64,000 nucleotides of DNA from Escherichia coli O127:H6 str. E2348/69 (GCF_000026545.1 NC_011601.1), one strand, 5' to 3'. Positions 1-23,131 are shown, counted from the stretch's first letter. The notes: generated by a model from the letters alone, not told the origin. Numbers and translations are program-made.

Positions 1-2
1 CA

Positions 3-758
3 ACCGTTCCTCAGCACCTGGCAGGAAAGCCTGCTGATTGTCTGGCAGTTACCATGCAGGCGGCGCAATGGGGCATGAACCCGTTCGCTGTTGCGCAGAA
101 GACGCACGTTGTAAACGGAACTCTTGGCTATGAAGCACAACTGGTTAACGCCGTCGTGTCTTCTTCAAACCTGCTTTCAACTCGCCTGAATTACCGCTGG
201 GATGGTGACTGGTCAAAGGTGAATGGCAAGAGCGACAAATCACCATCACTGACCGTTACAGTATCGGCAGTACTGAAAGGCGAAGCAGAGCCGCGCGAGC
301 TTACCATCAGCATGGCTCAGGCAGGTGTCCGTAACTCTCCGCTGTGGGAACAGGATCCACGACAGCAGCTTGCTTACCTGTGCGTTAAGCGTTGGGCTCG
401 TCTGCATGCACCTGATGTTCTGCTCGGAGTATACACCCCTGACGAATTGCAGGAGACAACACCGCGTGTTGAGCGCGACATCACGCCATCTGCGGCAACG
501 GCTCAGGGCATGAACAGCCTGATCAACTCAAAACCAGAGCAGAAGCAGGAAGAGCGTCAGCAGCATAAAGACGATCGCGGTCCTGAAGAGATTTTGCACG
601 CATTTTCCGGCGCGGCGATGAACTACAACACCCAGGCTGACCTGGACAAAGCATACAAATACGTTGCCCAGAAACTGGCTGGTGATGATGACCTGCTGGC
701 AAAAGCAACCGATGTTTACACCATCCGTTGTGACGAACTGAACGAAGTACCGATGTAA
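3..758 (+). CDS. Bet/RecT-family single-strand annealing recombinase (phage), 5'-partial, continues upstream of window
   Basis: Frame is open from position 3 with no stop. Translation 'QWGMNPF...NSPLWEQDPRQQLAYLCVKRWARLHAPDVLLGVYTPDE' parallels lambda Bet 'QYGLNPW...GPWQSHPKRMLRHKAMIQCARLAFGFAGIYDKDE', compared from memory. Confidence 0.55.
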   Translation, partial: TVPQHLAGKPADCLAVTMQAAQWGMNPFAVAQKTHVVNGTLGYEAQLVNAVVSSSNLLSTRLNYRWDGDWSKVNGKSDKSPSLTVTVSAVLKGEAEPRELTISMAQAGVRNSPLWEQDPRQQLAYLCVKRWARLHAPDVLLGVYTPDELQETTPRVERDITPSAATAQGMNSLINSKPEQKQEERQQHKDDRGPEEILHAFSGAAMNYNTQADLDKAYKYVAQKLAGDDDLLAKATDVYTIRCDELNEVPM

Positions 759-801
759 TCACCACTGCGGCGCCACGCGCGCCGCAAATGCAAGAGAGGT
801 A

Positions 802-1053
802 ATGATGAAAAGAGCATTTGGCAAAAAGGAACTGATGGCAGTGGTGCCGGTATCGATGAGCACCATTGACCGCATGGAGCGCAATGGCGAGTTCCCGCAG
901 CGCTTCTGGATCACTGATAAACGTTGTGCATGGAATGCTGAAGAGGTTGAGAACTGGCTTGATGAGCGTCAGGCCACCAGCCCGGCAGAGTTCACCGGAA
1001 AAAAGCCGCCGGTTGATCAGCGTGTTTACCGCCCAGTAAGTAACGCCGCATGA
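802..1053 (+). CDS. AlpA-family phage HTH regulator/excisionase-like protein
   Basis: 83 aa; 'MSTIDRMERNGEFPQRFWITDKRCAWNAEEVENWLDER' fits the AlpA/MerR-type HTH pattern; strong SD 'agagagg' 3-9 nt upstream of the ATG. Confidence 0.6.
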   Translation: MMKRAFGKKELMAVVPVSMSTIDRMERNGEFPQRFWITDKRCAWNAEEVENWLDERQATSPAEFTGKKPPVDQRVYRPVSNAA

Positions 1054-1162
1054 CAGCGCTGATCAGGCACTGGGAAAAATGGTCAGGATGGTACTTATTC
1101 CTGACCGCCGTTTCCGCCTGGCTGTATCTGCTGGCGGTAATTTTCAGAGAAGGCTGGATCCG

Positions 1163-1462
1163 ATGAGCAAATTAACCCGTCTTGAAAAGTATCACCTGAA
1201 CTATGTGTCTCAGCGTCAGGCTTCAAAGGTTGTCGCCGTTACTCCGGCGGCGATAGAGGTAGAAAAGCGCGCTGTTGAGCGTGAATCGAAAGGCCAGTAC
1301 CGCATTGCAGCCCGACTCTGGTTGCTGTGTATGGATGTAGCGGTCGGTGAAGTGGAGCGCGCCAGAATAGCGATACGCCGTGATCAGTGCATATCAAAAG
1401 GTAACGGCCTGCGCCGAGGCGAATATGCAGGGATCGGATGTCGCGGGGTGGTGTATGACTAA
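1163..1462 (+). CDS. hypothetical phage protein (start chosen at internal Met of the 127-aa ORF)
   Basis: ORF only; no recognisable motif; sits in the same-strand gene array between the AlpA-like and ASCH genes. Confidence 0.3.
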   Translation: MSKLTRLEKYHLNYVSQRQASKVVAVTPAAIEVEKRAVERESKGQYRIAARLWLLCMDVAVGEVERARIAIRRDQCISKGNGLRRGEYAGIGCRGVVYD

Positions 1463-1613
1463 TCCTCACGACAATATCAGCGTCGGCAGTATCACGCTGG
1501 TTTATTCAGCTCTGCGCCGCGGGTGGCTTGTACCTGGCGGAAGTGTCATACAGAACCCATTAAAGGCTCAGCGCATTGCTGAGCTGATGAACAGCAAGAA
1601 GGTGGCGGCATGA
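1425..1613 (+). CDS. hypothetical small phage protein
   Basis: ORF whose stop overlaps the next start (ATGA at 1610-1613); start at internal Met 'MQGSDVAGW'. Confidence 0.3.
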   Translation: MQGSDVAGWCMTNPHDNISVGSITLVYSALRRGWLVPGGSVIQNPLKAQRIAELMNSKKVAA

Positions 1614-2323
1614 AAGAGCGCGGAATGATTTTTAACGGAGAGATGGTGCGCGCCCTGCTGGACGGACGGAAGACGCAGACGCGGAGACCTCTCAAATGGA
1701 AGCAAACTCGGTTTACTGAAATAGCTGAACGCGAAGACGGTAGCCATTGGCCGTGGAGTGAGGATGCAGAAAATGTGTGCGATTTCTGGCATCCATGCCC
1801 GTTCGGTGCCGTCGGCGATCGCATCTGGGTGCGGGAGACGTGGGGCGTAGTGAGTCATGAACTGGATGAAGACGGTCGCATTCAGCCATGGATCCCTGAC
1901 CGACCTGCCACAGCCATTCACGAGATGCCGTTTGGTAATGGCTACTATTCTGGTCACGCTATCTACGCCGCAGATGGTGATTTTACATGGGGTGATGATG
2001 ATGGTTATGAAGATGGTCGTTCGTGCTGGAAACCATCTATCCATATGCCACGCGCAGCATGTCGCATTCTGCTGGAGGTTACCGGCGTGCGGGTGGAGCG
2101 CTTGAACGCTATCAGCGAAGAGGATGCGCGAGCAGAAGGAATTATTGACGGTGGCTGTCTCAATTGCGGTGAACCTGAACCATGCGGTTGCGCTAATCCA
2201 GATCCTGACGCGACAGATGCCTTCGCTTACCTGTGGCAATCGATCTATGGGCAGGAAAACTGGAACGCGAACCCTTGGGTATGGGTCATCGAGTTCAAGC
2301 GCGTTGAAGGCGGTGCAGCATGA
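1610..2323 (+). CDS. ASCH-domain protein
   Basis: N-terminus 'MIFNGEMVRALLDGRKTQTRRP' and C-terminus 'WVWVIEFKRV' resemble the ASCH family (e.g. YqfB 'ILAGRKTITIR ... FYVIEFKCL', from memory); SD 'aaggtgg' upstream. Confidence 0.55.
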   Translation: MKERGMIFNGEMVRALLDGRKTQTRRPLKWKQTRFTEIAEREDGSHWPWSEDAENVCDFWHPCPFGAVGDRIWVRETWGVVSHELDEDGRIQPWIPDRPATAIHEMPFGNGYYSGHAIYAADGDFTWGDDDGYEDGRSCWKPSIHMPRAACRILLEVTGVRVERLNAISEEDARAEGIIDGGCLNCGEPEPCGCANPDPDATDAFAYLWQSIYGQENWNANPWVWVIEFKRVEGGAA

Positions 2324-2913
2324 ACGGTAAATACACTCTGATTTATGCTGATCCTCCTTGGTCATACCGCGACAAAGCAGCCGACGGCGAGCGCGGCGCC
2401 GGATTTAAATATCCGGTTATGAACGTGCTGGATATCTGTCGCCTGCCAGTGTGGGATCTTGCCGCCGACGATTGCCTACTGGCAATGTGGTGGGTTCCTA
2501 CTCAGCCGGTTGAGGCGTTGAAAGTGGTCGAATCGTGGGGCTTCAAGCTGATGACCATGAAGGGATTCACCTGGCACAAGACGAATAAGCACAAAGGTAA
2601 CAGCGCGATCGGCATGGGCCACATGACAAGGGCGAACAGCGAAGACTGCCTGTTTGCGGTGCGTGGGAAACTACCGGCCCGCATGGATGCGTCAATCTGC
2701 CAGCACGTCACGGCGCCGCGCATGGAAAACTCGCGCAAGCCTGACATCATCCGCGAAAAACTGGTGCAGTTGCTGGGCGATGTTCCGCGCATTGAGCTAT
2801 TCGCCCGCCAGTCGTCACATGGTTTCGACGTATGGGGCAATCAGTGCGAAGGCCCGTCGGTGCAGTTGCTACCAGGCTGCTCTGTTCCGGTTGTAAGGAC
2901 GGAGGCAGCATGA
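2320..2913 (+). CDS. MT-A70 family DNA N6-adenine methyltransferase (orphan)
   Basis: 'YADPPWSY' DPPW catalytic motif near the N-terminus; 197 aa; start overlaps the ASCH stop (ATGA). No restriction endonuclease gene nearby. Confidence 0.7.
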   Translation: MNGKYTLIYADPPWSYRDKAADGERGAGFKYPVMNVLDICRLPVWDLAADDCLLAMWWVPTQPVEALKVVESWGFKLMTMKGFTWHKTNKHKGNSAIGMGHMTRANSEDCLFAVRGKLPARMDASICQHVTAPRMENSRKPDIIREKLVQLLGDVPRIELFARQSSHGFDVWGNQCEGPSVQLLPGCSVPVVRTEAA

Positions 2914-3089
2914 CAATGTTCAATGAGGCGGAGTTAATCCGCCAACTGGAAGAACAGCGCGCTGTGATTGTGCAGAAAAGTGCTCAAGTTAACTGGTTGC
3001 AAACTGAAAACAGTGTTTTGCACAAGAAATGTGAAGAACTGCAAATGACAGTTGATCTACAGCGAGAATTTATACAATCCAGAAATTAA
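2910..3089 (+). CDS. hypothetical small protein
   Basis: Start at internal 'MTMFNEAELIRQLEEQ' with SD 'aggacggagg'; overlaps the integrase stop by 4 nt. Confidence 0.3.
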   Translation: MTMFNEAELIRQLEEQRAVIVQKSAQVNWLQTENSVLHKKCEELQMTVDLQREFIQSRN

Positions 3090-4339
3090 TCACCTTCACT
3101 CATCCATCGCTCAAACTTCGACGGGGAGAATGGCACCAGATCGGTGTGCTCCCCGCTAATCCAGGCATCAACCATATCTGCCCACTGCTGCAACATGTAG
3201 GCGCGCTGCCTGGCGTACTCCGCTTTGTTGTATACCGCACGCACTCCCTTTTGCTCATGCGCCAGCGCCTTTTCAATCCAGTCTGATGGATAACCAGCCT
3301 CATGCAACAGCGTACTGGCTGTGCGGCGCAGGTCGTGCACAGAGAATTCATCAAGATGCCCACCAGCCTCGCTCACCGCTTCGACGGTGGTATTGATCAG
3401 CCTGTTCAGTGCGCCATTGGATAACGGCTTGCTAACCGAATAGCGCCCGGGCAAAAGGTAATCACTTCCACCAGCGCACATCTGCAGGCCAACAATGAGA
3501 TCCTGCGCCTGCTTTGGCAGATAGATAACGTGTGACCGGCTTCCCTTCATTCGTTCCGCCGGTATCGTCCATGTCCATTTTTTGAAATCGATTTCTGACC
3601 ATGTGGCGTTGGTGAACTCGCTTTTGCGAACCAGGGTGAGCAGCACCAGTTTTAATGCCAGTTTCATTGTGGCCATAGCCCCGACATTATCCAGCGCCCG
3701 GAAGAATACGCCTATCTCTTCAGGTTGCAGCGTGCGGTCGCGCGGCTTGAACATGGCTATTGATGAAGGCTTGATATCAGCAGCAGGATTAAACAGGCCA
3801 TGCCCGCGATCATTAGCGTGACGGTATACACTGCTGATTATCTCTCTGGCTTGCACTGCCGTAGCCCGGCCTCCACGTTCAACAATGCGATCGCACAGGT
3901 CACGCACCATGCCGGTGGTTATCTCAGCCATCATTTTGTTACCCAGCACCGGCATGATGTCGCGATCGATAACGGCCTGTTTCATCGCCCGGGTACTGTC
4001 AGCCAGAATGACGTGCTTCATATAGCTGTCGGTATGTACCGCGAAGGTTTCAGCACCACGGATCTTTTTGATACCGTCACGTTTCGCCGCAGCTGGCGAC
4101 TGGCCTGCCTTTAACAGTTTTTTGGCAGCAATGAGTTCTTCTCGTGCTTCCGCCAGGCTGATACCGTCACGACCGTACTGACCGATGACCAGCGTTTCCC
4201 GGCGCCCGTTAATGCGGTAGTCGTACCGGAAAGAGACAGAACCGGAAGTAAGCACCGCAACATACAGCCCGTCACGATCCGAAACCTTATACAGTTTGTC
4301 CTGCGGCTTGAGGTTTTTCAGTTTGGTATCAGTAAGCAC
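3086..4339 (-). CDS. int: P4-type tyrosine integrase (site-specific recombinase), GTG start
   Basis: 417 aa; N-terminal 'LTDTKLKNLKP...DGLYVAV' arm-binding type domain; C-terminal 'HDLRRTASTLLHEAGY...VRAVYNKAEY' contains the H-x-x-R ... Y catalytic signature. Confidence 0.85.
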   Translation of the reverse strand: MLTDTKLKNLKPQDKLYKVSDRDGLYVAVLTSGSVSFRYDYRINGRRETLVIGQYGRDGISLAEAREELIAAKKLLKAGQSPAAAKRDGIKKIRGAETFAVHTDSYMKHVILADSTRAMKQAVIDRDIMPVLGNKMMAEITTGMVRDLCDRIVERGGRATAVQAREIISSVYRHANDRGHGLFNPAADIKPSSIAMFKPRDRTLQPEEIGVFFRALDNVGAMATMKLALKLVLLTLVRKSEFTNATWSEIDFKKWTWTIPAERMKGSRSHVIYLPKQAQDLIVGLQMCAGGSDYLLPGRYSVSKPLSNGALNRLINTTVEAVSEAGGHLDEFSVHDLRRTASTLLHEAGYPSDWIEKALAHEQKGVRAVYNKAEYARQRAYMLQQWADMVDAWISGEHTDLVPFSPSKFERWMSEGD

Positions 4340-4463
4340 AATTCACCCGTAAAGCATCCATGGTTTGACGGTATGAAGAGTATACCTTTAAGGTAATACC
4401 GTCACCTGTACCGATGAAAAATGTGAGATAGAGTGAATAGATATGATGTGATATAAAGAAAAA

Positions 4464-4490
4464 CCCTCTGTAAAAACAGAGGGTTGATTG
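4464..4490 (-). terminator. guaA intrinsic terminator
   Basis: Hairpin ccctctg/cagaggg (4464-4483) followed on the minus strand by a T-run. Confidence 0.6.
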
Positions 4491-4531
4491 CATAACTGAA
4501 TAGAAATGATTAGCTGTGAGTTAGCTGTACA

Positions 4532-6109
4532 TCATTCCCACTCAATAGTTGCTGGTGGCTTGCCGCTGATGTCATACACCACGCGGGAAATACCATTCAC
4601 TTCATTGATAATGCGGTTGGAAACGCGACCGAGGAAATCGTACGGCAGATGTGCCCAGTGTGCGGTCATAAAGTCGATGGTTTCGACAGCACGCAGAGAA
4701 ACAACCCAGTCATACTTACGACCATCGCCCATTACGCCAACGGAACGTACTGGCAGGAAGACGGTGAACGCCTGGCTGACTTTGTCGTACAGGTCCGCTT
4801 TACGCAGTTCTTCAATGAAGATGGCGTCAGCACGGCGCAGCAGGTCACAATACTCTTTCTTCACTTCTCCCAGAACACGAACGCCAAGGCCTGGTCCCGG
4901 GAACGGGTGACGGTACAACATGTCATACGGTAGGCCCAGCTCCAGACCAATCTTACGCACTTCGTCTTTGAACAGCTCTTTCAGCGGTTCAACCAGGCCC
5001 ATCTTCATCTCTTTCGGCAGGCCACCCACGTTGTGGTGAGATTTGATGACGTGTGCTTTACCGGTTGCAGAAGCAGCAGATTCGATAACGTCAGGGTAGA
5101 TGGTGCCCTGCGCCAGCCACTTCACGTCTTCCAGTTTCAGCGCTTCTTCATCGAATACTTCAACGAAAACGCGCCCGATGATTTTACGTTTTGCTTCCGG
5201 ATCATTTTCGCCAGCCAGCGCTGACAAGAAGCGATCTTCTGCCGGTACGTGAACAATATTCAGACCAAAGTGATCGCCAAACATATCCAGAACCTGCTCT
5301 GCTTCGTTGAGACGCAGCAGGCCGTTGTCGACGAATACGCAAGTCAGGTTTTTACCGATAGCGCGGTGCAACAGCATTGCGGTTACGGAGGAATCCACGC
5401 CACCAGAGAGGCCGAGGATGACTTTATCGTCACCGACCTGCTCGCGGATGCGGGCTACAGCGTCGTCGATAATTTTCGCGGGCGTCCACAGGGCTTCACA
5501 CTGGCAGATATCACGCACAAAACGCTCCAGCATGCGCATACCCTGGCGGGTGTGAGTCACTTCCGGGTGGAACTGTACGCCATAGAAGCGTTTTTCTTCG
5601 TTGGCCATGATGGCAAACGGGCAGCTTTCGGTGCTGGCTACGGTGACAAAGTCGGACGGGATAGCGGTAACTTTATCGCCGTGGCTCATCCAAACGTCCA
5701 GCAGCGGTTTACCATCTGCGGTCAGCGCATCTTCGATACCGCGAACCAGTGCGCTGTCGTTTACGACTTCAACCTGCGCGTAGCCAAATTCACGTTCATT
5801 AGAGGCCTCAACGTGACCGCCCAACTGCATCGCCATGGTCTGCATGCCATAGCAAATGCCGAATACCGGTACGCCTGCTTCAAAGACATACTGCGGCGCA
5901 CGCGGGCTGTTTTCTTCGGTGGTGCTTTCCGGGCCGCCGGAAAGAATAATGCCGCTTGGATTGAAGTCACGAATTTGTGCTTCTGTCACATCCCACGCCC
6001 ACAGTTCGCAGTAAACACCCAGCTCACGCACGCGGCGCGCAACCAGTTGAGTGTACTGAGAACCGAAGTCCAGAATGAGGATGCGATGCTTATGAATGTT
6101 TTCCGTCAT
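4532..6109 (-). CDS. guaA: GMP synthase (glutamine-hydrolysing)
   Basis: 525 aa; '[36 protein letters not shown]...' recognised as E. coli GuaA. Confidence 0.97.
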
Positions 6110-9486: not shown

Positions 9487-9507
9487 TACTACTTACTTAA
9501 CAATGAA

Positions 9508-11811
9508 TTACTGGGCGCAAATCTGGAGAGATGACTGGGCGCCGTACTCTAATCCTCCCGTCAGCATATTCATCCATTGAGTAATGGAAGTCGGATTATT
9601 AGTCCAGTACCCTTTATTGCCGTTCCCCGCAGGCCATCCACCTTTCAGATAATATACATGCAGAAAATCAACTTCAGCGCGAAGCGCACTTAAATCGGCA
9701 ACTGTCGGGTATTTATCTGCGGCACAACCACCACTACCTATAGCTGCTTGCGATGACGTTACCATTGCCCAGTTTTCTGCGACCTGCATACCTAACCGAT
9801 CGCTTGCAAACTTATATGAATCCCCCGCATTTGGTAATTCACTAAAAAGTTTCGGGCGATTAAATGTCCGACCATTCAGCGTTAACGTATCTTCCATATA
9901 CCCCCAAAACTCAGCGTCAGGCGTATCCGGGCTGGTAATTGTCTCAAAAATGACTGGCATTGATCCTTGAGCTGTTCGCTCACTCAGATCCGACTTGTCA
10001 TTCTGGATATATATATCGTGGAGGCTTCCCAAACCGTTTGTATTTTGTGCCAATGTAAATTCAAAGAAACCAGACTTATCCGCTGTCGCATAATAATACC
10101 TCATCTCATCAATACTATGAGTCTTTTGCGTACTATTGACTATAGTCATATCGGCAACCCCACTCTTATTCCCCTGACGGCTTATTGGATAACGATATGT
10201 CATTGTTCCCGGTGCATATGGAACACCTTTCCCACTACCATCCACAGCCTGAAGACGGACCTTCACTGACTGTTTACCAACTGTTTTCCCTTTGAATGCG
10301 TTAAAAGTACCTCTACTGTTACTTCCATGGTTGAAACCAACAACTGAAACCATATCCGACGGATTTATAAGCTTATATTTCGTAATTTTCGGATTCGTAG
10401 TCTGCTGGCACATTACCAAAAAGCCGTTTACTGTTACTGGATCAGGGACAAACTGATCAGAAGTCGTGCTTCTATTACTCAGATTAACCATCAGGAAATT
10501 ACGACTACTAACAACGGCTGAGTCTGACGTTTTTGAATGGTAGTTAGCGCTTACAGGCAAACCTGTTTTGGCCTTCACCCCATCAGGATAAGCATCGATC
10601 AACGAGTTCAGGTTCTGTTGCGTTGGAACATTGAGTGATCCTCCAGGGCCACATCCCCCCCTTTTCTCAACCGCTGTTTCAAGGTGATTATTCCTGACCA
10701 GAACCCAGGATTCATTTGATTCTAAGACACTCTTAAAGGGGTTTTGTACCTCAGTAGCAAGTCTGGGGCGCTTAAACACAATACCGTTACTGGCCTTAAA
10801 CGTTTCACTCATATGGCCCCACATATTGGCGAGCGTGCTGTCCGGGCTGGTGATCACGGTAAAAGTGACATCTTGCGTCAAGGGAGTACTCATGCCGGTA
10901 GCAGTAATGTACAGCGGTGTTTTTACCCCTATCCCCTCATTTTGCGTTACCGCGATGGTCGCGATGCCACCTTCCCCCGTTACCCCTTTGTATTCCGTGG
11001 TGGTGTCGGTCATAACTGTACCGCCCAGCGAAACGGGGGCACCAGTATCATTTGCAACATTCTGACGGTTAGTGGGTACGCCGCGCCTAACAGTAAAAGG
11101 CGTGCCCGCTTTCAGATTGCCATCACAATCTTTCACCGTCAGAGTCAACGTAATGGTCTCCCCAACTTTCGCTTTCGCTGCACTTATGCTGGCGGCAATC
11201 GGCGTTGCCACCGCAGCCGCCACATTCAACGGGAATTTGGTATTCGCTAACGACACAGGCCCATTATCCGGTACACCTGATGTGGTATGCAGTAACAGCG
11301 TTGCCGCACTATTGCTATCGACTTTTGGCCACACTACTAACTGCCCGGAAAGATTTTGCTCACAAAAAGAGAGGGCTATATTCGGTTGTGGATTGAGGGG
11401 CTCATTGGGTTTATCCGCTTTAGCCCAGACCAGACTGACATCTGGGGCAACATCATTTAGCCATGAGAGCTGTGGTATATCATCAAAACGATCCCCTTCG
11501 GCATCTGATGGATTCGTCAGATACAGTTTTTCCGGTGTCGTGTCAGCACTGAATGCTTTCGGCAATGCCGTTGCAACAATGGCAGTCGTAGTTGCAGGAT
11601 CAAGTTTCGTACTTCCCTGATATACTGGAACAGACACACTTTCTGCCGTCGGCGGTGTACCGTTAAGCTTACCTGTGGTTTGGTTCTCGCTTTGCCATAT
11701 GCCAGAGTTATCGGCCTGCACAGGAAAAGCAGCACACATTGATAACAGGATGCAGCTAACGCTGGTTTTTAATCTAAAATTCCCTTCCATGAGTGATCCC
11801 GCTGTAGTCAT
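9508..11811 (-). CDS. Secreted Ig-like (Big) domain protein, RatA-like; start ambiguous (11790, 11811 or TTG at 11823)
   Basis: Signal peptide 'LKTSVSCILLSMCAAFPVQA'; Big-like segment 'TLTLTVKDCDGNLKAGTPFTVRRG'; internal duplication of a ~130-aa domain ('MWGHMSETFKASNGIVFKRPRL...' and 'FWGYMEDTLTLNGRTFNRPKL...'). Confidence 0.65.
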   Translation of the reverse strand: MTTAGSLMEGNFRLKTSVSCILLSMCAAFPVQADNSGIWQSENQTTGKLNGTPPTAESVSVPVYQGSTKLDPATTTAIVATALPKAFSADTTPEKLYLTNPSDAEGDRFDDIPQLSWLNDVAPDVSLVWAKADKPNEPLNPQPNIALSFCEQNLSGQLVVWPKVDSNSAATLLLHTTSGVPDNGPVSLANTKFPLNVAAAVATPIAASISAAKAKVGETITLTLTVKDCDGNLKAGTPFTVRRGVPTNRQNVANDTGAPVSLGGTVMTDTTTEYKGVTGEGGIATIAVTQNEGIGVKTPLYITATGMSTPLTQDVTFTVITSPDSTLANMWGHMSETFKASNGIVFKRPRLATEVQNPFKSVLESNESWVLVRNNHLETAVEKRGGCGPGGSLNVPTQQNLNSLIDAYPDGVKAKTGLPVSANYHSKTSDSAVVSSRNFLMVNLSNRSTTSDQFVPDPVTVNGFLVMCQQTTNPKITKYKLINPSDMVSVVGFNHGSNSRGTFNAFKGKTVGKQSVKVRLQAVDGSGKGVPYAPGTMTYRYPISRQGNKSGVADMTIVNSTQKTHSIDEMRYYYATADKSGFFEFTLAQNTNGLGSLHDIYIQNDKSDLSERTAQGSMPVIFETITSPDTPDAEFWGYMEDTLTLNGRTFNRPKLFSELPNAGDSYKFASDRLGMQVAENWAMVTSSQAAIGSGGCAADKYPTVADLSALRAEVDFLHVYYLKGGWPAGNGNKGYWTNNPTSITQWMNMLTGGLEYGAQSSLQICAQ

Positions 11812-11899
11812 TATCTGGTTCAATATACTTTGCTTAATGGTTGATTAAGCAAAGTATGCTGGTAATGCCACTCCCCGAAGGAAGTGGCATTGGGCATAA

Positions 11900-19991: not shown

Positions 19992-20990
19992 CTAATAGTA
20001 ACTGCGCATCCTTCTTTCTCTGGATATGTTCAAGCGCGCTTTTCTCAGCACCAGCAACAGCGGCTTACTTCTTAACAATTCACAAAGCGTTATCGCCTTC
20101 GGTGAGTACTGTCTGGCTTGCAGCGCCTCTCTACGCTCTACCTCTGCGGCTTTTCTGAGGGCTAGCGTTTGTAAGTTGTAGTATGTTTTATCGCTACATG
20201 TAACGATGATTGGTTTCACATGTGATCGTTCGGGTGAGTCAGCCAGTGTTCGCTGTATCCTGCGGCGCTGCGCTGGTCTTTTTGCTTTTGACGCTTCAAG
20301 TTTCAACTGCGTACGCCGTACTTCAAAGTATCCCGCTGCTTCTGGGGTTATGATCTGCGATGCGTGCGTTGCCCAATTACTGGATGACGCCCATACGGAC
20401 ACTGATAACCAGTCGTACGGGCTTTTTTCTGCTCTGGCATTAAACTCCTTAAGTTTAGTTTTACCTTTTGTAAGGTACGATAGGACTTCAAAACTGTAAA
20501 CGAATCTAACATCTTGATTTTTAATTAAATTATTGCGACCCTCATATGGCTGGCGCTTTACCCACGCAACCAGCAGGTCTCTCGCTATGCTCTCATCTGG
20601 AACTTTCACAATCATGTGTAAATGTAGGGTATCCTGAAACGCCGCCCACTCAACACAATATATCCACGGAATACTGCGTCTCGTAAGCGAGCGTGTGAAT
20701 GTGGTTATCGCCGTTTTCAAAGTCTCCGGCGTGATGCACTGTGCTGGGCGTAAGGTCAGCAAATATACGTTTCCACCTTGTGTAGCATCCAGATCGATAG
20801 AGAGTAGACGTCTTTTGAAGGCTCTAAGCCTGTCAATCGAAAAAGCCACTTTGCGCTTTCTGATGTGGCTGTTTGGGCTTGTTTTCTTTCTTTGCTTGTT
20901 TTGGTTGCGTGGTTTCATGTAAGCGTCAACAAATGCACCACGCTTGCGCACGATGTATTGTTCAGCGCGATCCCCGTGATATAATTTCAT
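19992..20990 (-). CDS. HUH-type rolling-circle replication initiation protein
   Basis: 332 aa; 'TLHLHMIV' gives a His-hydrophobic-His motif; downstream 'SYLTKGK' is a candidate catalytic Tyr; ATG with SD. Confidence 0.55.
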   Translation of the reverse strand: MKLYHGDRAEQYIVRKRGAFVDAYMKPRNQNKQRKKTSPNSHIRKRKVAFSIDRLRAFKRRLLSIDLDATQGGNVYLLTLRPAQCITPETLKTAITTFTRSLTRRSIPWIYCVEWAAFQDTLHLHMIVKVPDESIARDLLVAWVKRQPYEGRNNLIKNQDVRFVYSFEVLSYLTKGKTKLKEFNARAEKSPYDWLSVSVWASSSNWATHASQIITPEAAGYFEVRRTQLKLEASKAKRPAQRRRIQRTLADSPERSHVKPIIVTCSDKTYYNLQTLALRKAAEVERREALQARQYSPKAITLCELLRSKPLLLVLRKARLNISRERRMRSYY

Positions 20991-21042
20991 TGCGAATATG
21001 TTCCTAAAATTACCCGCCTGGCAGGGCGGGTTTTTTTATGTC

Positions 21043-21432
21043 TTACAGGTACTTTTCCCCAATTGCTTGCGTTATCTCTGAGAACGACGATTCAGACACG
21101 TCCCCTCTGATCCCCCTAAGTATTCGTAACGCAGACTCAACCTTGCGTAATATCTTCGTGTATCTTGCATTGGTGCGCCATATACAAAGCATTCCCGCTT
21201 TGTCGAGTCGGTATTTTACCAAATCCCTTTCAGGAATGTGATATGCACCATCCATGCGCTGTTCGACGGGGATACCCCAGTCATTACGTAACAGAGTTAA
21301 AACACGGCTGCGCTCATGTCCACCAGCAGAAGATAAGTACCTGTCAAATTGGGTTGGGGTGAGGCTATGACCATCTAACAGAATATCGCGGATCTGTGCG
21401 GTAGCTTGGTTTCGTGTCAATGCTTTCATCAT
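21043..21432 (-). CDS. hypothetical protein (129 aa; truncated from the 231-aa ORF)
   Basis: Start at internal 'MMKALTRNQ' with SD-like 'aagggg' upstream; the longer ORF form would overlap the HTH gene in another frame. Confidence 0.4.
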   Translation of the reverse strand: MMKALTRNQATAQIRDILLDGHSLTPTQFDRYLSSAGGHERSRVLTLLRNDWGIPVEQRMDGAYHIPERDLVKYRLDKAGMLCIWRTNARYTKILRKVESALRILRGIRGDVSESSFSEITQAIGEKYL

Positions 21433-21439
21433 TTGCCCC

Positions 21440-21622
21440 TTACAGAAACCGGGCTGCGAATTGGTCGAGATCTGCAACCAACCATACTCTGCGCTTTCTG
21501 CCGTTGATAGACTGGACGGTGCAAGTCGGAAAAGCTGGAATGTAACGCTTATATTGGTAAAAGCGTGATAGACAAACGCCAAGATATTGCGCGGATTCTC
21601 GCGCGGTAAGGTAATTTTCCAT
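21440..21622 (-). CDS. AlpA-like excisionase/HTH regulator (60 aa)
   Basis: 'LTARESAQYLGVCLSRFYQYKRYIPAFP...NGRKRRVWLVADLDQFAARF' fits the AlpA/Xis HTH pattern; first gene after the integrase. Confidence 0.6.
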   Translation of the reverse strand: MENYLTARESAQYLGVCLSRFYQYKRYIPAFPTCTVQSINGRKRRVWLVADLDQFAARFL

Positions 21623-21824
21623 AATAACGATCCATGTTTATGTTTTGTCCACATTATGGGGCATCCTGCCCCATAAATACTGTACATAATTTTTTCAATT
21701 ATCCCAAGTCTACAACCAAAAAATCTCCCGCGTAGCAATCCCTATAGTTCGCCCTTGTTCTGTTTCAATTTCATATACGCTAGCTCCACACAAGCTGTAT
21801 CGCCACCATAATTTCGATCTCCGG

Positions 21825-23087
21825 CTAATTACAGTTACTATATTTTTTCATGGGGACGACGTTGTAATCTTCACCACTTTCCAGCGTAACCAGCAGTTCA
21901 GCCCACTGCTCCAATGCAGCTTTTCTCTCTTCAAAATAGTGGTGGCGATTATAAATACCTTCAACACCGGGTATTTTATGATTAAGACATCTTTCAGCTA
22001 TTACAGGATCAATCCCCAATGCTGCCATCTGGGTACGCATCGTACGTCGTAAGTCATGAATGCTAAATGGCTCAACATCAGGCATCTCTTTTAATACTGA
22101 AGGCAAAACCATATTCAGCGTACTGCGACTAACGTGCGATGTAGTCCTCCCCCTCCTTGCCGGAATTAACCAGCGGCTATTACCAGCAAACAGACGGATT
22201 TCCTTGATCCATTCGATAACAGGATCAGCTAGCGGGATGTCTATCTCCTCACCATTTTTTGCTCGATCAGCAGGAAAATGCCAAACTTTTTCATCAAGAT
22301 TAAACTCCGACCACTCGGCAGCGCATAATTCCATCTTGCGAACCCCTAGCGCGAGAATGATTTTAAACGTTAACTCATTCTCTCTGCTAATACCCCGCCC
22401 CTTACGCAGAGCTTTAAAAAACATTACTAGCTCCTCACGCGTGAGTGCTCGCTTACGCCCTTGCTCTTTCCCGCCTGCATCTTTTGAACTAAATGAAATC
22501 GCGGGGTTTACTTCAATCATCCCGCGTACAACAGCATAATCAAAAAGGCGCTTAAGCATTCTTAGCACGTCATTCGCAACGGTAGGAGAACCGCGCTCTA
22601 ATACATTCTGCAAAACATAGTCGATATGTTTCGGGCGTACATCCTCAATTTTCATTTTGCCGATAGATGCGACAATGTTTTTTTGTAAGCTACTGCGAAA
22701 TAACTCCGGATGCTTGTAAGTGGGTTCTATCTGCCGCGAGTAATACTCAGCGGCTAAATCTGATACTCGTTTTGCGTTCTTTTGCGCTTCAATCTTTTCC
22801 AATGCTTCAGCTTTTCGCTTCTGTTTCTCTCCTGCTACGTCATAACCAAGAGAAACACGGGCTGCCAGTTCTCTGGCGACCTCTCTTGCTTTTGCAAGAG
22901 AGAAATCAGTATACGAACCAATCAGCACAACTCGCGATTTTCCGCCTAACTTGTAACGAAAGCGCCAGTTAGGGAGTTTGTCACTTTTCCTAAATCGAAG
23001 ATAAAGCCCGTTTCCGTCTGCCTTACCTTCGAATCTCTCATCGGATTTAATCCAAGCTTTGATTTGTAGGTCAGTTAATTTTGCCAT
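21825..23087 (-). CDS. int: P4-type tyrosine integrase
   Basis: 'MAKLTDLQIKAWIK...GNGLYLRF' N-terminal domain; C-terminal 'HDLRRTMRTQMAALGI...GIYNRHHY'; start set at ATG 23087 with SD 'aggtg' (track start is a GTG at 23096). Confidence 0.85.
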   Translation of the reverse strand: MAKLTDLQIKAWIKSDERFEGKADGNGLYLRFRKSDKLPNWRFRYKLGGKSRVVLIGSYTDFSLAKAREVARELAARVSLGYDVAGEKQKRKAEALEKIEAQKNAKRVSDLAAEYYSRQIEPTYKHPELFRSSLQKNIVASIGKMKIEDVRPKHIDYVLQNVLERGSPTVANDVLRMLKRLFDYAVVRGMIEVNPAISFSSKDAGGKEQGRKRALTREELVMFFKALRKGRGISRENELTFKIILALGVRKMELCAAEWSEFNLDEKVWHFPADRAKNGEEIDIPLADPVIEWIKEIRLFAGNSRWLIPARRGRTTSHVSRSTLNMVLPSVLKEMPDVEPFSIHDLRRTMRTQMAALGIDPVIAERCLNHKIPGVEGIYNRHHYFEERKAALEQWAELLVTLESGEDYNVVPMKKYSNCN

Positions 23088-23131
23088 TACGAACACCTGA
23101 ATACGTTACATCGGGTACGCAAAGCCATCGT

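Follow-up and report, generated by a model that had tools for sequence, protein, structure and literature searches.

The stretch of DNA analysed here (64,000 nucleotides, hereafter the window) begins inside a prophage, and its positions 1-4546 are the integrase-proximal end of a complete epsilon15-like (Uetakevirus) temperate phage of about 40.3 kb in EPEC E2348/69, to which this part is 100% identical. This prophage was already known and is a full one, not just the "prophage-like" element described in an earlier reading of the sequence alone (the sequence-only reading). The order of the genes is recT (3' part), xis/alpA, perC, DUF1317, ASCH-like, MT-A70 and orf59, convergent with a P4-type integrase gene (Table 1). 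All genes described in the sequence-only reading were recovered at its coordinates or close to them. It correctly had the integrase reading inward from the guaA junction, and the recombinase and the AlpA-type HTH on the opposite strand, but the recombinase, which it called Bet-like, in fact belongs to the RecT family. The genes for the PerC-family activator, the DUF1317 protein and the 59-aa product were not mentioned in it.

Table 1. Features at the integrase-proximal end of the prophage (window coordinates)
Feature	Position	Strand	Evidence and remarks
recT, single-strand annealing recombinase, 3' part (C-terminal ~252 codons)	1..758	+	PF03837 RecT 2.1e-25; phrog_561 2e-103
AlpA-type HTH, likely excisionase/regulator	805..1053 (alternative ATG 802)	+	PF05930 1.2e-5; phrog_66 2.8e-15; RefSeq CDS
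PerC-family transcriptional activator	1163..1462	+	PF06069 8.2e-5; phrog_868 3.7e-55; RefSeq CDS
DUF1317 small protein	1455..1613	+	PF07026 1.6e-22; stop overlaps ASCH-like start (ATGA 1610)
ASCH-like (PUA-like fold) protein, 237 aa	1610..2323	+	TGA overlaps methyltransferase ATG as ATGA 2320-2323
MT-A70 (class beta) N6-adenine methyltransferase, predicted, 197 aa, catalytic core only	2320..2913	+	PF05063 2.8e-25
orf59, 59-aa ORF	2910..3089	+	phrog_4701 4.6e-33; coupled to methyltransferase by ATGA at 2910
P4-type tyrosine integrase, 417 aa, GTG start at 4339	3086..4339	-	PF00589 2.2e-22; PF13356 2.9e-20; PF22022 9.5e-12; phrog_1
Intrinsic terminator hairpin, 10-bp stem + T run	4462..4485	-	Terminator scan; just downstream of guaA
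att core ATCATTCCCACTCAAT	4531..4546	.	guaA stop codon + last 4 codons; prophage/chromosome junction
guaA	4532-6109	-	Adjoins integrase start

Insertion of the prophage at the 3' end of guaA, as previously proposed, was confirmed by the att repeats and by an empty site. The attachment site has a core of 16 bp, which makes up the final five codons of guaA (stop included). Homology begins at position 4531 in 4859 of 5426 E. coli genomes, and strain 675SK2 carries the empty site, with the arrangement yfgI-94 bp-guaA. A second, exact copy of the core lies 40.3 kb away beside yfgI (L002 18837-18852), where it adjoins a hairpin (CCCTCTGT-AGTA-ACAGAGGG) similar to the one at the guaA end. The hairpin next to guaA is supplied by the phage and replaces the native guaA terminator, which was left at the other end of the prophage. 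Upstream of the genes of the integrase end, the prophage encodes portal, capsid and tail proteins as well as lysis and replication functions; the direct repeats, empty site, integrase and full structural set of an integrated temperate phage are thus all present.

The recT gene begins 123 nt before position 1 (RefSeq CDS WP_000063813.1, L001 19877-20758), so that the apparent ORF start at position 54 is an artefact. The phrog_66 family matched by the AlpA-type protein is labelled "excisionase and transcriptional regulator". No Pfam match was obtained for orf59, the stop codon of which overlaps that of the integrase gene; a homologue follows the methyltransferase in 69 of 80 related loci. Each of the three ATGA overlaps along the plus strand (at 1610, 2320 and 2910) has a G-rich, Shine-Dalgarno-like run 5' of the next frame, and no sigma-70-like promoter was found inside this gene run, against 4.1 expected in shuffled sequences. 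The seven genes from recT to orf59 are read as the distal portion of a single early operon. The ATGA overlap between the ASCH-like and methyltransferase genes that had been pointed out before is real but not peculiar to them: four successive genes are chained in this way, and the coupling is therefore not specific to the pair.

The methyltransferase matches PF05063 with 89.7 bits (cut-off 23.9) over all 172 profile positions (1-172). Motif IV, DPPW, is placed at residues 11-14 (YADPPWSY, residues 8-15) and RIELFAR...WGNQ at the C-terminus, which is the permuted order of class beta. The protein is colinear with the catalytic domains of Tetrahymena MTA1 (1.5e-13) and METTL3 (5e-8) among PDB matches, and matches the PADLOC model MTase_II (1e-75). 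It is 98.5% identical to the methylase of phage SPN1S and 92.7% identical to that of epsilon15. Its identity to the methylase of the Stx phage VT2phi_272 (Oslovirus PA2) is 72.7% over residues 1-186; this protein stood in for the enzyme of Stx phage phiPA8 in the comparison. No recognisable target-recognition domain was seen in the 197 residues. The immediate neighbours are the ASCH-like gene, orf59 and the integrase gene, and not the adjacent restriction endonuclease gene of a type II restriction-modification system. A cognate restriction gene just outside the window would have spoken against the orphan status claimed earlier, but none was found in the whole prophage of about 40 kb, including the part beyond the window, by annotation or by Pfam and PADLOC searches of the hypothetical proteins, several of which received no assignment. 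The methyltransferase can thus be regarded as an orphan.

The product of the upstream gene has the ASCH beta-barrel fold, and its earlier designation as an ASCH-domain protein holds at this level but not at that of sequence models, as neither PF04266 nor the NCBIfam ASCH model matched it at E<=0.01 (27 of 63 homologues match weakly, at best with 1.3e-4). A YqfB-type octapeptide, G19-RKTQT-R26, agrees with the ASCH motif GxKxx[E/T/S]xR (octapeptide definition from bioRxiv 10.64898/2026.02.27.708502); its residues G19-R-K21-T-Q-T24-R-R26 are conserved at 90% or more in 63 diverse homologues and align with residues 19-26 of YqfB. The constellation K21/T24/R26/E176 appears to be retained and would correspond to the catalytic K21, T24, R26 and E74 of YqfB (PMC6972931). 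Three large and variable inserts (residues 27-62, 79-139 and 178-204) interrupt the domain, the last one with a Cys-x2-Cys-x5-Cys-x-Cys cluster.

A closer inspection of the slot upstream of the methyltransferase was made in 80 viral loci with methyltransferases at least 89% identical. The slot was empty in 30 of them, with DUF1317 directly abutting an intact methyltransferase gene, and held an ASCH-like gene in 21, a DndB-like gene in three, and other cassettes, or no DUF1317, in 26. Identical methyltransferases occur both with and without the ASCH-like gene, no residue of the enzyme in these 80 loci separates the two groups, and the nearest relatives of the E2348/69 allele (99% identical) have an empty slot. 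In SPN1S a DndB-like gene (PF14072, DndB 1.3e-42) sits exactly in the place of the ASCH-like gene, with nucleotide identity of 92-96% on both flanks and breakpoints at exactly 1613/2319. Seen from the other side, about 25 of 80 ASCH-like genes lie directly beside a methyltransferase gene, of five or six unrelated families, and about 70% have no methyltransferase adjacent; an MT-A70 gene is the neighbour in only 10 of the 80. Adjacency at this level exceeds that expected from uniform placement within +/-3 kb (about 11%, a rough estimate); it points to a functional theme more than to chance alone and counts against a purely facultative association. Linkage amounts to about 30% of ASCH-like loci adjoining some methyltransferase gene and 26% of methyltransferase loci carrying an ASCH-like gene. 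From this distribution the ASCH-like gene appears to be an optional, swappable cassette and not a fixed or obligate partner. The co-function that had been deduced from the overlap of the two genes is not upheld by the chaining of four genes, the 21 of 80 loci with ASCH upstream and the identical enzymes with and without it.

The explanation preferred here, with a probability of roughly 0.6, is that of a prophage end carrying an orphan methyltransferase that acts on its own, next to a facultative ASCH-like cassette. The methyltransferase, a core-only enzyme of the M.EcoGV / M.EcoPA8orf6770P clade, is a constant member of the methyltransferase-orf59-integrase module, and the slot before it is a hot spot that is empty or holds ASCH-like, DndB-like or nuclease-like genes, small proteins or another small methyltransferase, with cassettes exchanged at the conserved gene-junction sequences. 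As to timing and substrates, the enzyme would be made upon transcription of the early operon, at infection or induction, and would add m6A to nucleic acid by itself, probably through DNA methylation that is Dam-like (GATC) or of low specificity, the kind reported for M.EcoGV on overproduction, with RNA as a possible additional substrate. The ASCH-like protein may be a YqfB-like enzyme or reader that most likely acts on N-modified bases of RNA or DNA, either binding them or removing the modification, its hypervariable inserts tuning the choice of target. With a known complete prophage, a lone MT-A70 gene and an optional ASCH-type cassette, the finding is largely ordinary and of modest interest.

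The ASCH-like protein might instead be the substrate-targeting subunit of the core-only enzyme, with the ASCH-like, DndB-like and PNB-2 genes as exchangeable cassettes that retarget one catalytic subunit, in the ASCH case through an RNA-binding module to rRNA, tRNA or modified sites and not to phage DNA. Its direct precedent is M.EcoPA8orf6770P of phiPA8, homologous to M.EcoGV of O104:H4 (Gong, Chakraborty and Koudelka, NAR 2024, PMC10810198), which alone is nearly inactive and weak on DNA, even on unmethylated GATC DNA, and requires the product of the upstream, co-transcribed gene, PNB-2, for specific activity; the 1:1 complex has a >13-fold preference for RNA and is specific for 16S rRNA/30S. 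By analogy, this slot-encoded partner would count against the view of ASCH as facultative. Characterised MT-A70 enzymes (METTL3-14, MTA1-MTA9) likewise act as heteromers (PMC7544214), and the lack of a recognisable target-recognition domain, the translational coupling, the nucleic-acid or modification association of other slot occupants such as DndB, the hypervariability of the inserts (a trait to be expected in a specificity module) and the published ASCH-methyltransferase linkage (PMC4738411) all favour such a complex. It nevertheless seems unlikely in view of the intact and even identical methyltransferases at empty slots, the lack of co-varying residues, and the ASCH-like genes that stand alone or pair with unrelated methyltransferase folds; the E2348/69 allele is also devoid of the STEC-type C-terminal tail linked to PNB-2 binding. 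An AlphaFold2 model of the fused pair (pTM 0.49) gave no confident interface or fixed orientation, a weak negative because of the linker fusion, the shallow methyltransferase alignment and the absence of PAE.

Another reading is doubtful: a Dam-like or promiscuous enzyme would serve solely to methylate the DNA of progeny phage in advance and so shield it from restriction in the following host, with ASCH doing no more than helping it to bind DNA. Phage orphan methyltransferases are generally assumed to be protective (PMC5778455), and the orphan status and early-operon position agree with this, as does the GATC assignment of M.EcoGV (PMC6602927), which its homologues share in REBASE; for the present allele GATC specificity would be transferred from a 73%-identical enzyme. 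On the other hand, the phenotype described for the Stx-phage homologue concerns a change in prophage induction and not an escape from restriction (PMC10810198), and no evidence for ASCH assisting the methyltransferase emerged from the 80-locus comparison. An anti-restriction or epigenetic role, as put forward in the sequence-only reading, therefore stays plausible but not as the sole reading, the homologue being weak on DNA alone and preferring 16S rRNA with its partner, so that a simple anti-restriction function is not assured. In E. coli and Salmonella hosts GATC is already methylated by Dam, which makes added protection doubtful and masks the GATC activity of an enzyme like M.EcoGV, so that the methylome check proposed earlier would probably be uninformative. 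That these genes are decaying cargo, non-functional remnants of a defective prophage, is very improbable: the nin-like region of the prophage, away from this end, does contain some annotated pseudogenes and a pseudogenic tRNA, but the seven ORFs in the window are all intact and 92-99% conserved with SPN1S, the catalytic motifs are unaltered, and the full structural, lysis and integration gene set is kept along with intact att repeats.

Like the phiPA8 enzyme, the methyltransferase of E2348/69 is a prophage-borne, core-only, orphan MT-A70 enzyme, encoded where the early-left region ends, only a few genes away from int, translationally coupled to an upstream gene and followed by a small ORF. Here, however, the upstream gene is ASCH-like and not the winged-helix PNB-2, the gene is carried by an epsilon15-like podovirus inserted at guaA and not by an Stx phage at a tRNA-Arg site, and the protein has 197 and not 208 residues, diverging after WGNQC..PG (...PGCSVPVVRTEAA against ...PGIVKFLEKTNERKNDVDKGITS in VT2phi_272; alignment ending at residue 186), without the C-terminal tail of about 27 residues tied to PNB-2 association by Gong et al. 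A phmmer search with the VT2phi_272 upstream protein revealed no PNB-2 homologue in the window or among the upstream ORFs of the 80 related loci, and the A1 profile did not match that protein. M.EcoGII and Hia5-type enzymes (PMC5778455) are also prophage-encoded, orphan class beta m6A methyltransferases, silent in the lysogen, but of another family (N6_N4_Mtase, with a DPPY motif and a TRD in the middle of the 349 aa), the sequence relation being limited to the class beta motif order.

E. coli YqfB is an ASCH-domain N4-acetylcytidine amidohydrolase (PMC6972931; PDB 9kyf), and ASCH proteins have been described as ac4C deacetylases (bioRxiv 10.64898/2026.02.27.708502). The phage protein differs from it in its 237 residues, with about 135 residues of inserts (the four-Cys cluster included) that are hypervariable between phages, and in D172 at the place of H70; some phage variants, unlike YqfB, are without K21 and T24 (GSMTQVRR). 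The Salmonella phages SPN1S and epsilon15 (Uetakevirus) share the order recE/recT-regulator-perC-DUF1317-[slot]-methyltransferase-59 aa-int, their methyltransferase being annotated as "putative adenine methylase", a function predicted there too, and SPN1S differs in its DndB-like gene. Iyer, Zhang and Aravind (BioEssays 2016, PMC4738411) drew attention to fusions and operons of ASCH with N6A methyltransferases and put forward the idea that ASCH discriminates modified bases. The present locus resembles those cases in having an ASCH-fold gene beside an N6A methyltransferase gene on a prokaryotic mobile element; theirs is a general comparative-genomics statement, whereas in the present analysis the linkage was put to the test and proved facultative.

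The E2348/69 chromosome (O127:H6, enteropathogenic) matches positions 1–4600 of the window with 100% identity, and the RefSeq annotation, read also over the 20–35 kb past the window edge, places a full set of phage genes between guaA and yfgI. The set encodes a repressor-type HTH protein, replication proteins, the small and large terminase subunits, portal, a capsid with epsilon15-type 'capsid staple' and cement proteins, a tail spike, an O-antigen acyltransferase, holins, an endolysin and an Rz-like product. A 16-bp repeat, ATCATTCCCACTCAAT, is found at window positions 4531–4546 and again 40.3 kb away, adjoining yfgI. The window copy spans the final four codons of guaA together with its stop codon, and integration therefore regenerates the end of this gene. 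Homology to the window starts exactly at 4531 in 4859 of the 5426 complete E. coli genomes, and the flank on the integrase side is present in 567 (10%), which therefore carry a related element at the same guaA site; the empty site (yfgI – 94 bp – guaA) is seen in strain 675SK2. The hairpin that the phage supplies downstream of guaA resembles the native guaA terminator, now stranded at the far prophage end (~18880–18905 of the yfgI-side locus, L002). In the lysogen guaA thus keeps a terminator and read-through into the integrase gene is blocked. A pseudogenic tRNA-Gly (9033–9145 of L001, the chromosome region numbering in which the window lies about 20 kb in, and outside the window) and several truncated ORFs occur in the late, nin-like region of the same prophage and suggest that the prophage has decayed somewhat, although its gene set is otherwise complete. 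A literature search returned no paper tying E2348/69 to a guaA prophage, to epsilon15 or to a methylome.

A second integrative island occupies window positions ~9500–23100 (L001 29500–43100), between the xseA/zinc-ribbon gene and der. Besides the genes listed in the table it contains an adhesin, SinI, an IS4 remnant, an HTH regulator and two hypotheticals, and its GC content falls to 0.33–0.40 at 15–19 kb.

Features at the integrase end of the guaA prophage and in the neighbouring island (window coordinates)
Feature	Position	Strand	Remark
recT, 3' part	window start; gene begins before it	+	RecT family
AlpA-type HTH		+	PHROGs class: excisionase/regulator
PerC-family activator	1163–1462	+	
DUF1317 gene		+	between the PerC-family and ASCH-like genes
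ASCH-like protein, 237 aa	1610–2323	+	
MT-A70 methyltransferase	2320–2913	+	
orf59, 59 aa	2910–3089	+	phrog_4701, unknown function
P4-type tyrosine integrase	3086–4339	-	start beside guaA
Phage terminator hairpin for guaA	4462–4485	-	CCCTCTGT-loop-ACAGAGGG + T run
SinH	12904–15108	-	second island; intimin-like inverse autotransporter
Nucleotidyltransferase	17065–17724	-	second island; Hailong anti-phage pair
halA	17726–18847	-	second island; Hailong anti-phage pair
Tyrosine integrase	21825–23087	-	second island; adjoins der

The gene arrangement described at the guaA 3' end in the sequence-only reading is confirmed with corrections. The integrase does read inward from the guaA junction, and the gene taken there for a Bet-like recombinase belongs to the RecT family instead. 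The ATGA overlap between the ASCH-like stop and the methyltransferase start is real (at 2320), and equivalent overlaps are present at 1610 and 2910, each with a G-rich, Shine-Dalgarno-like run ahead of it. A scan of 1–4700 gave no sigma-70-like promoter, where shuffled sequences predict 4.1. The simplest reading is a single early transcript carrying a chain of translationally coupled genes; in such a chain the overlap is uninformative on any specific tie between the ASCH-like protein and the methyltransferase, and as evidence of one it was rejected, the same junction being found at three gene boundaries. LEE expression in EPEC and EHEC is controlled by PerC/Pch-type regulators, and the PerC-family copy of the prophage might cross-talk with EPEC virulence regulation.

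The methyltransferase is a bare MT-A70 catalytic core of 197 residues (PF05063, 89.7 bits) with the DPPW motif at residues 11–14 and no extra domain. The solved structures closest to it are those of the Tetrahymena DNA m6A methyltransferase MTA1 (1.5e-13) and of METTL3 (5e-8). Among the proteins of sequenced phages it shares 98.5% identity with the 'putative adenine methylase' of SPN1S, a Salmonella phage, 92.7% with the methylase of an epsilon15 isolate and, over residues 1–186, 72–73% with the integrase-adjacent methylase of many Stx2 phages, VT2phi_272 (species Oslovirus PA2) included. M.EcoGII-type non-specific methylases were considered and rejected as another family (DPPY, 349 aa). An endonuclease was sought in the whole prophage, including the parts beyond the window, by annotation, Pfam and PADLOC with the hypotheticals included, several of which drew no assignment, and none was detected. 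A restriction-modification system was rejected on this ground, and the earlier description of the enzyme as an orphan is supported; PADLOC likewise matched no defence-system model to the ASCH-like protein, to orf59 or to the hypotheticals of the prophage.

The Stx-phage enzyme of this clade, M.EcoPA8orf6770P of phiPA8/phiPA2, was studied by Gong, Chakraborty and Koudelka (PMC10810198). With its gene disrupted, spontaneous induction of the prophage and virulence are both reduced. Purified without its partner, the enzyme is weakly active and non-specific; it co-purifies 1:1 with PNB-2, a winged-helix protein encoded immediately upstream by a co-transcribed gene. The complex favours RNA over DNA more than 13-fold, with 16S rRNA in 30S subunits as the preferred substrate. 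Overproduction of the O104:H4 homologue M.EcoGV in the absence of PNB-2 is reported to give GATC methylation (PMC10810198), and methylome studies list M.EcoGV-type genes as GATC, where they are indistinguishable from host Dam (PMC6602927). A label of 'DNA adenine methylase, GATC', or a methylome screen in a Dam+ background, cannot by itself establish the function of an MT-A70 gene. The anti-restriction role first proposed for the E2348/69 enzyme is possible, and is rivalled by the partner-dependent RNA methylation and control of induction of its closest studied relative.

The position between the DUF1317 gene and the methyltransferase gene (the slot), filled by the ASCH-like gene in E2348/69, was inspected in 80 viral loci with methyltransferase proteins at least 89% identical. 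The downstream module of methyltransferase, orf59 and integrase is constant: an orf59 homologue follows the methyltransferase in 69 of the 80 loci, and most of the others stop at the edge of a contig. The slot itself is empty in 30 loci, with DUF1317 abutting the methyltransferase, and holds an ASCH-like gene in 21 and a DndB-like gene in three. In the remaining 26 there is some other cassette or DUF1317 was not detected; the readable cassettes include ones for a 63-aa protein, for two proteins of unknown function (168 and 289 aa) and for another small protein that resembles a methyltransferase and has a DPPH motif. Some of the 26 instead have a recombination or replication gene (e.g. SSB or exonuclease) nearest upstream. 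SPN1S is 92–96% identical to the window on both flanks of the slot, with homology breaking exactly at 1613 and 2319. A DndB-family gene (PF14072, 1.3e-42; 3009–4004 of the SPN1S locus), DNA-sulfur-modification-associated and ParB-like, replaces the ASCH-like gene exactly there, joined to the methyltransferase start by a 4-nt overlap. Identical methyltransferases are seen both with and without the ASCH-like gene, the slot is empty in the three closest relatives (99%) of the E2348/69 allele, and no methyltransferase residue separating the two kinds of loci was found in the 80. Among complete E. coli genomes the full ASCH cassette appears only in the three E2348/69 assemblies, and short segments of it recur elsewhere.

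The ASCH-like protein matches nothing in Pfam or NCBIfam, nor in the PDB by sequence. Its family, PHROG 874 ('unknown function'), is very large (43,401 representative clusters at 50% identity, E<=0.001). A plain homologue search yielded close Klebsiella relatives only, and diverse members were taken from the representative search; 27 of 63 of these match PF04266 weakly. An AlphaFold2 model built from family homologues is confident (pLDDT 92.6, pTM 0.87), and all nine of its best Foldseek matches in the PDB are ASCH proteins. GRKTQTRR (residues 19–26) fits the threonine (YqfB) form of the ASCH octapeptide, is at least 90% conserved in the family and aligns position for position with Lys21, Thr24 and Arg26 of YqfB, whose alanine mutants are inactive (PMC6972931). 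On this evidence the ASCH assignment holds. The core is split by three inserts (residues 27–62, 79–139 and 178–204), the last of which holds a Cys-x2-Cys-x5-Cys-x-Cys cluster. Beside near-identical methyltransferases (loci L085–L164) the core is almost invariant while the inserts are hypervariable or swapped wholesale, and two variants carry GSMTQVRR, with the loss of Lys21 and Thr24. Compared with YqfB, an ac4C amidohydrolase, the phage protein appears to keep the catalytic residues and has shuffled variable inserts. The near-invariant core, the exchanged inserts and the two variants fit a part in binding or specificity no worse than that of a housekeeping enzyme.

Seen from the ASCH side, in 80 viral loci with ASCH-like proteins at 42–73% identity, MT-A70 lies downstream in four and upstream in six, and other methyltransferase families (Dam PF05869, D12, N6_N4, C-5 and a small class-I type) adjoin in about 15 more. 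This adjacency, roughly 25 of 80, exceeds a rough estimate of ~11% of loci with a methyltransferase nearby under uniform placement; over half of the loci lack any methyltransferase-like ORF within 3 kb. Four distant members sampled from metagenome contigs lie in phage early or replication contexts (SSB, AAA_24, dCMP deaminase), one of them with a methyltransferase (N6_N4) two genes away. Klebsiella phage 2 LV-2017 (L167, 2495–5095) shows another layout near the integrase, with the ASCH-like gene (1.5e-77 to our ASCH-like profile, A1) behind an MT-A70 and a C-5 cytosine methylase and followed by excisionase and integrase genes. Iyer et al. had earlier pointed out fusions and operons of ASCH with N6A methyltransferases, and suggested that ASCH discriminates modified bases (PMC4738411).

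That the methyltransferase stays intact and nearly unchanged with or without the ASCH-like gene indicates, at the level of sequence comparison, that the ASCH-like protein is not an obligate subunit. The co-function proposed from the ATGA overlap is not supported as stated: the junction recurs, the slot is variable and identical enzymes do with and without the neighbour. The ATGA junctions, with the similar ...EGGAA-type tails that end each cassette, look like conserved boundaries for lambdoid-type module exchange. The constant coupled neighbour of the methyltransferase is orf59 (ATGA at the methyltransferase stop), which makes a better candidate for a fixed partner than the ASCH-like protein. 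A looser tie stays alive, because the only studied member of the clade takes its specificity from an upstream gene product and because ASCH-like genes adjoin methyltransferases of unrelated fold above the uniform-placement prediction. A fusion, ASCH-(GGGGS)6-methyltransferase, was modeled with AlphaFold2 from ten natural pairs, 37 ASCH-only homologues and seven distant methyltransferases brought into register by fusing them to the query ASCH. Both domains fold, but the pTM of 0.49 is that expected of two halves with no fixed mutual orientation, and the methyltransferase C-terminal tail is disordered. The model gives no support for a complex, which by so crude a method is no disproof; since the same modeling also failed for the methyltransferase–PNB-2 pair, shown by Gong et al. 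to interact (PMC10810198), it is weighed lightly. An improbable extension is that the slot serves as a plug-in adaptor site where ASCH-like, DndB-like and PNB-2-type proteins interchangeably retarget one MT-A70 core to various nucleic acids. If so, a YqfB-like ASCH adaptor, through its shuffled hypervariable inserts, would direct m6A to host RNA (such as rRNA or tRNA), or couple m6A with de-modification, and the ASCH-directed mark on host RNA would tune prophage induction or translation.

An orphan phage methyltransferase in a sequenced prophage of a published genome is a largely ordinary finding of modest interest; a functional assay on one ASCH-like member would annotate very many phage genes. 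The E2348/69 allele parts from the STEC-type enzyme after WGNQC..PG and falls 11 residues short of it, which probably places it with the shorter non-STEC isoform, described as lacking the C-terminal 27 residues and PNB-2 (PMC10810198). In Stx phages, partner-dependent rRNA methylation by enzymes of this clade has been shown to alter prophage induction and virulence, and the EPEC allele, of the same clade with a different upstream gene, offers a natural test of whether the slot sets substrate choice.
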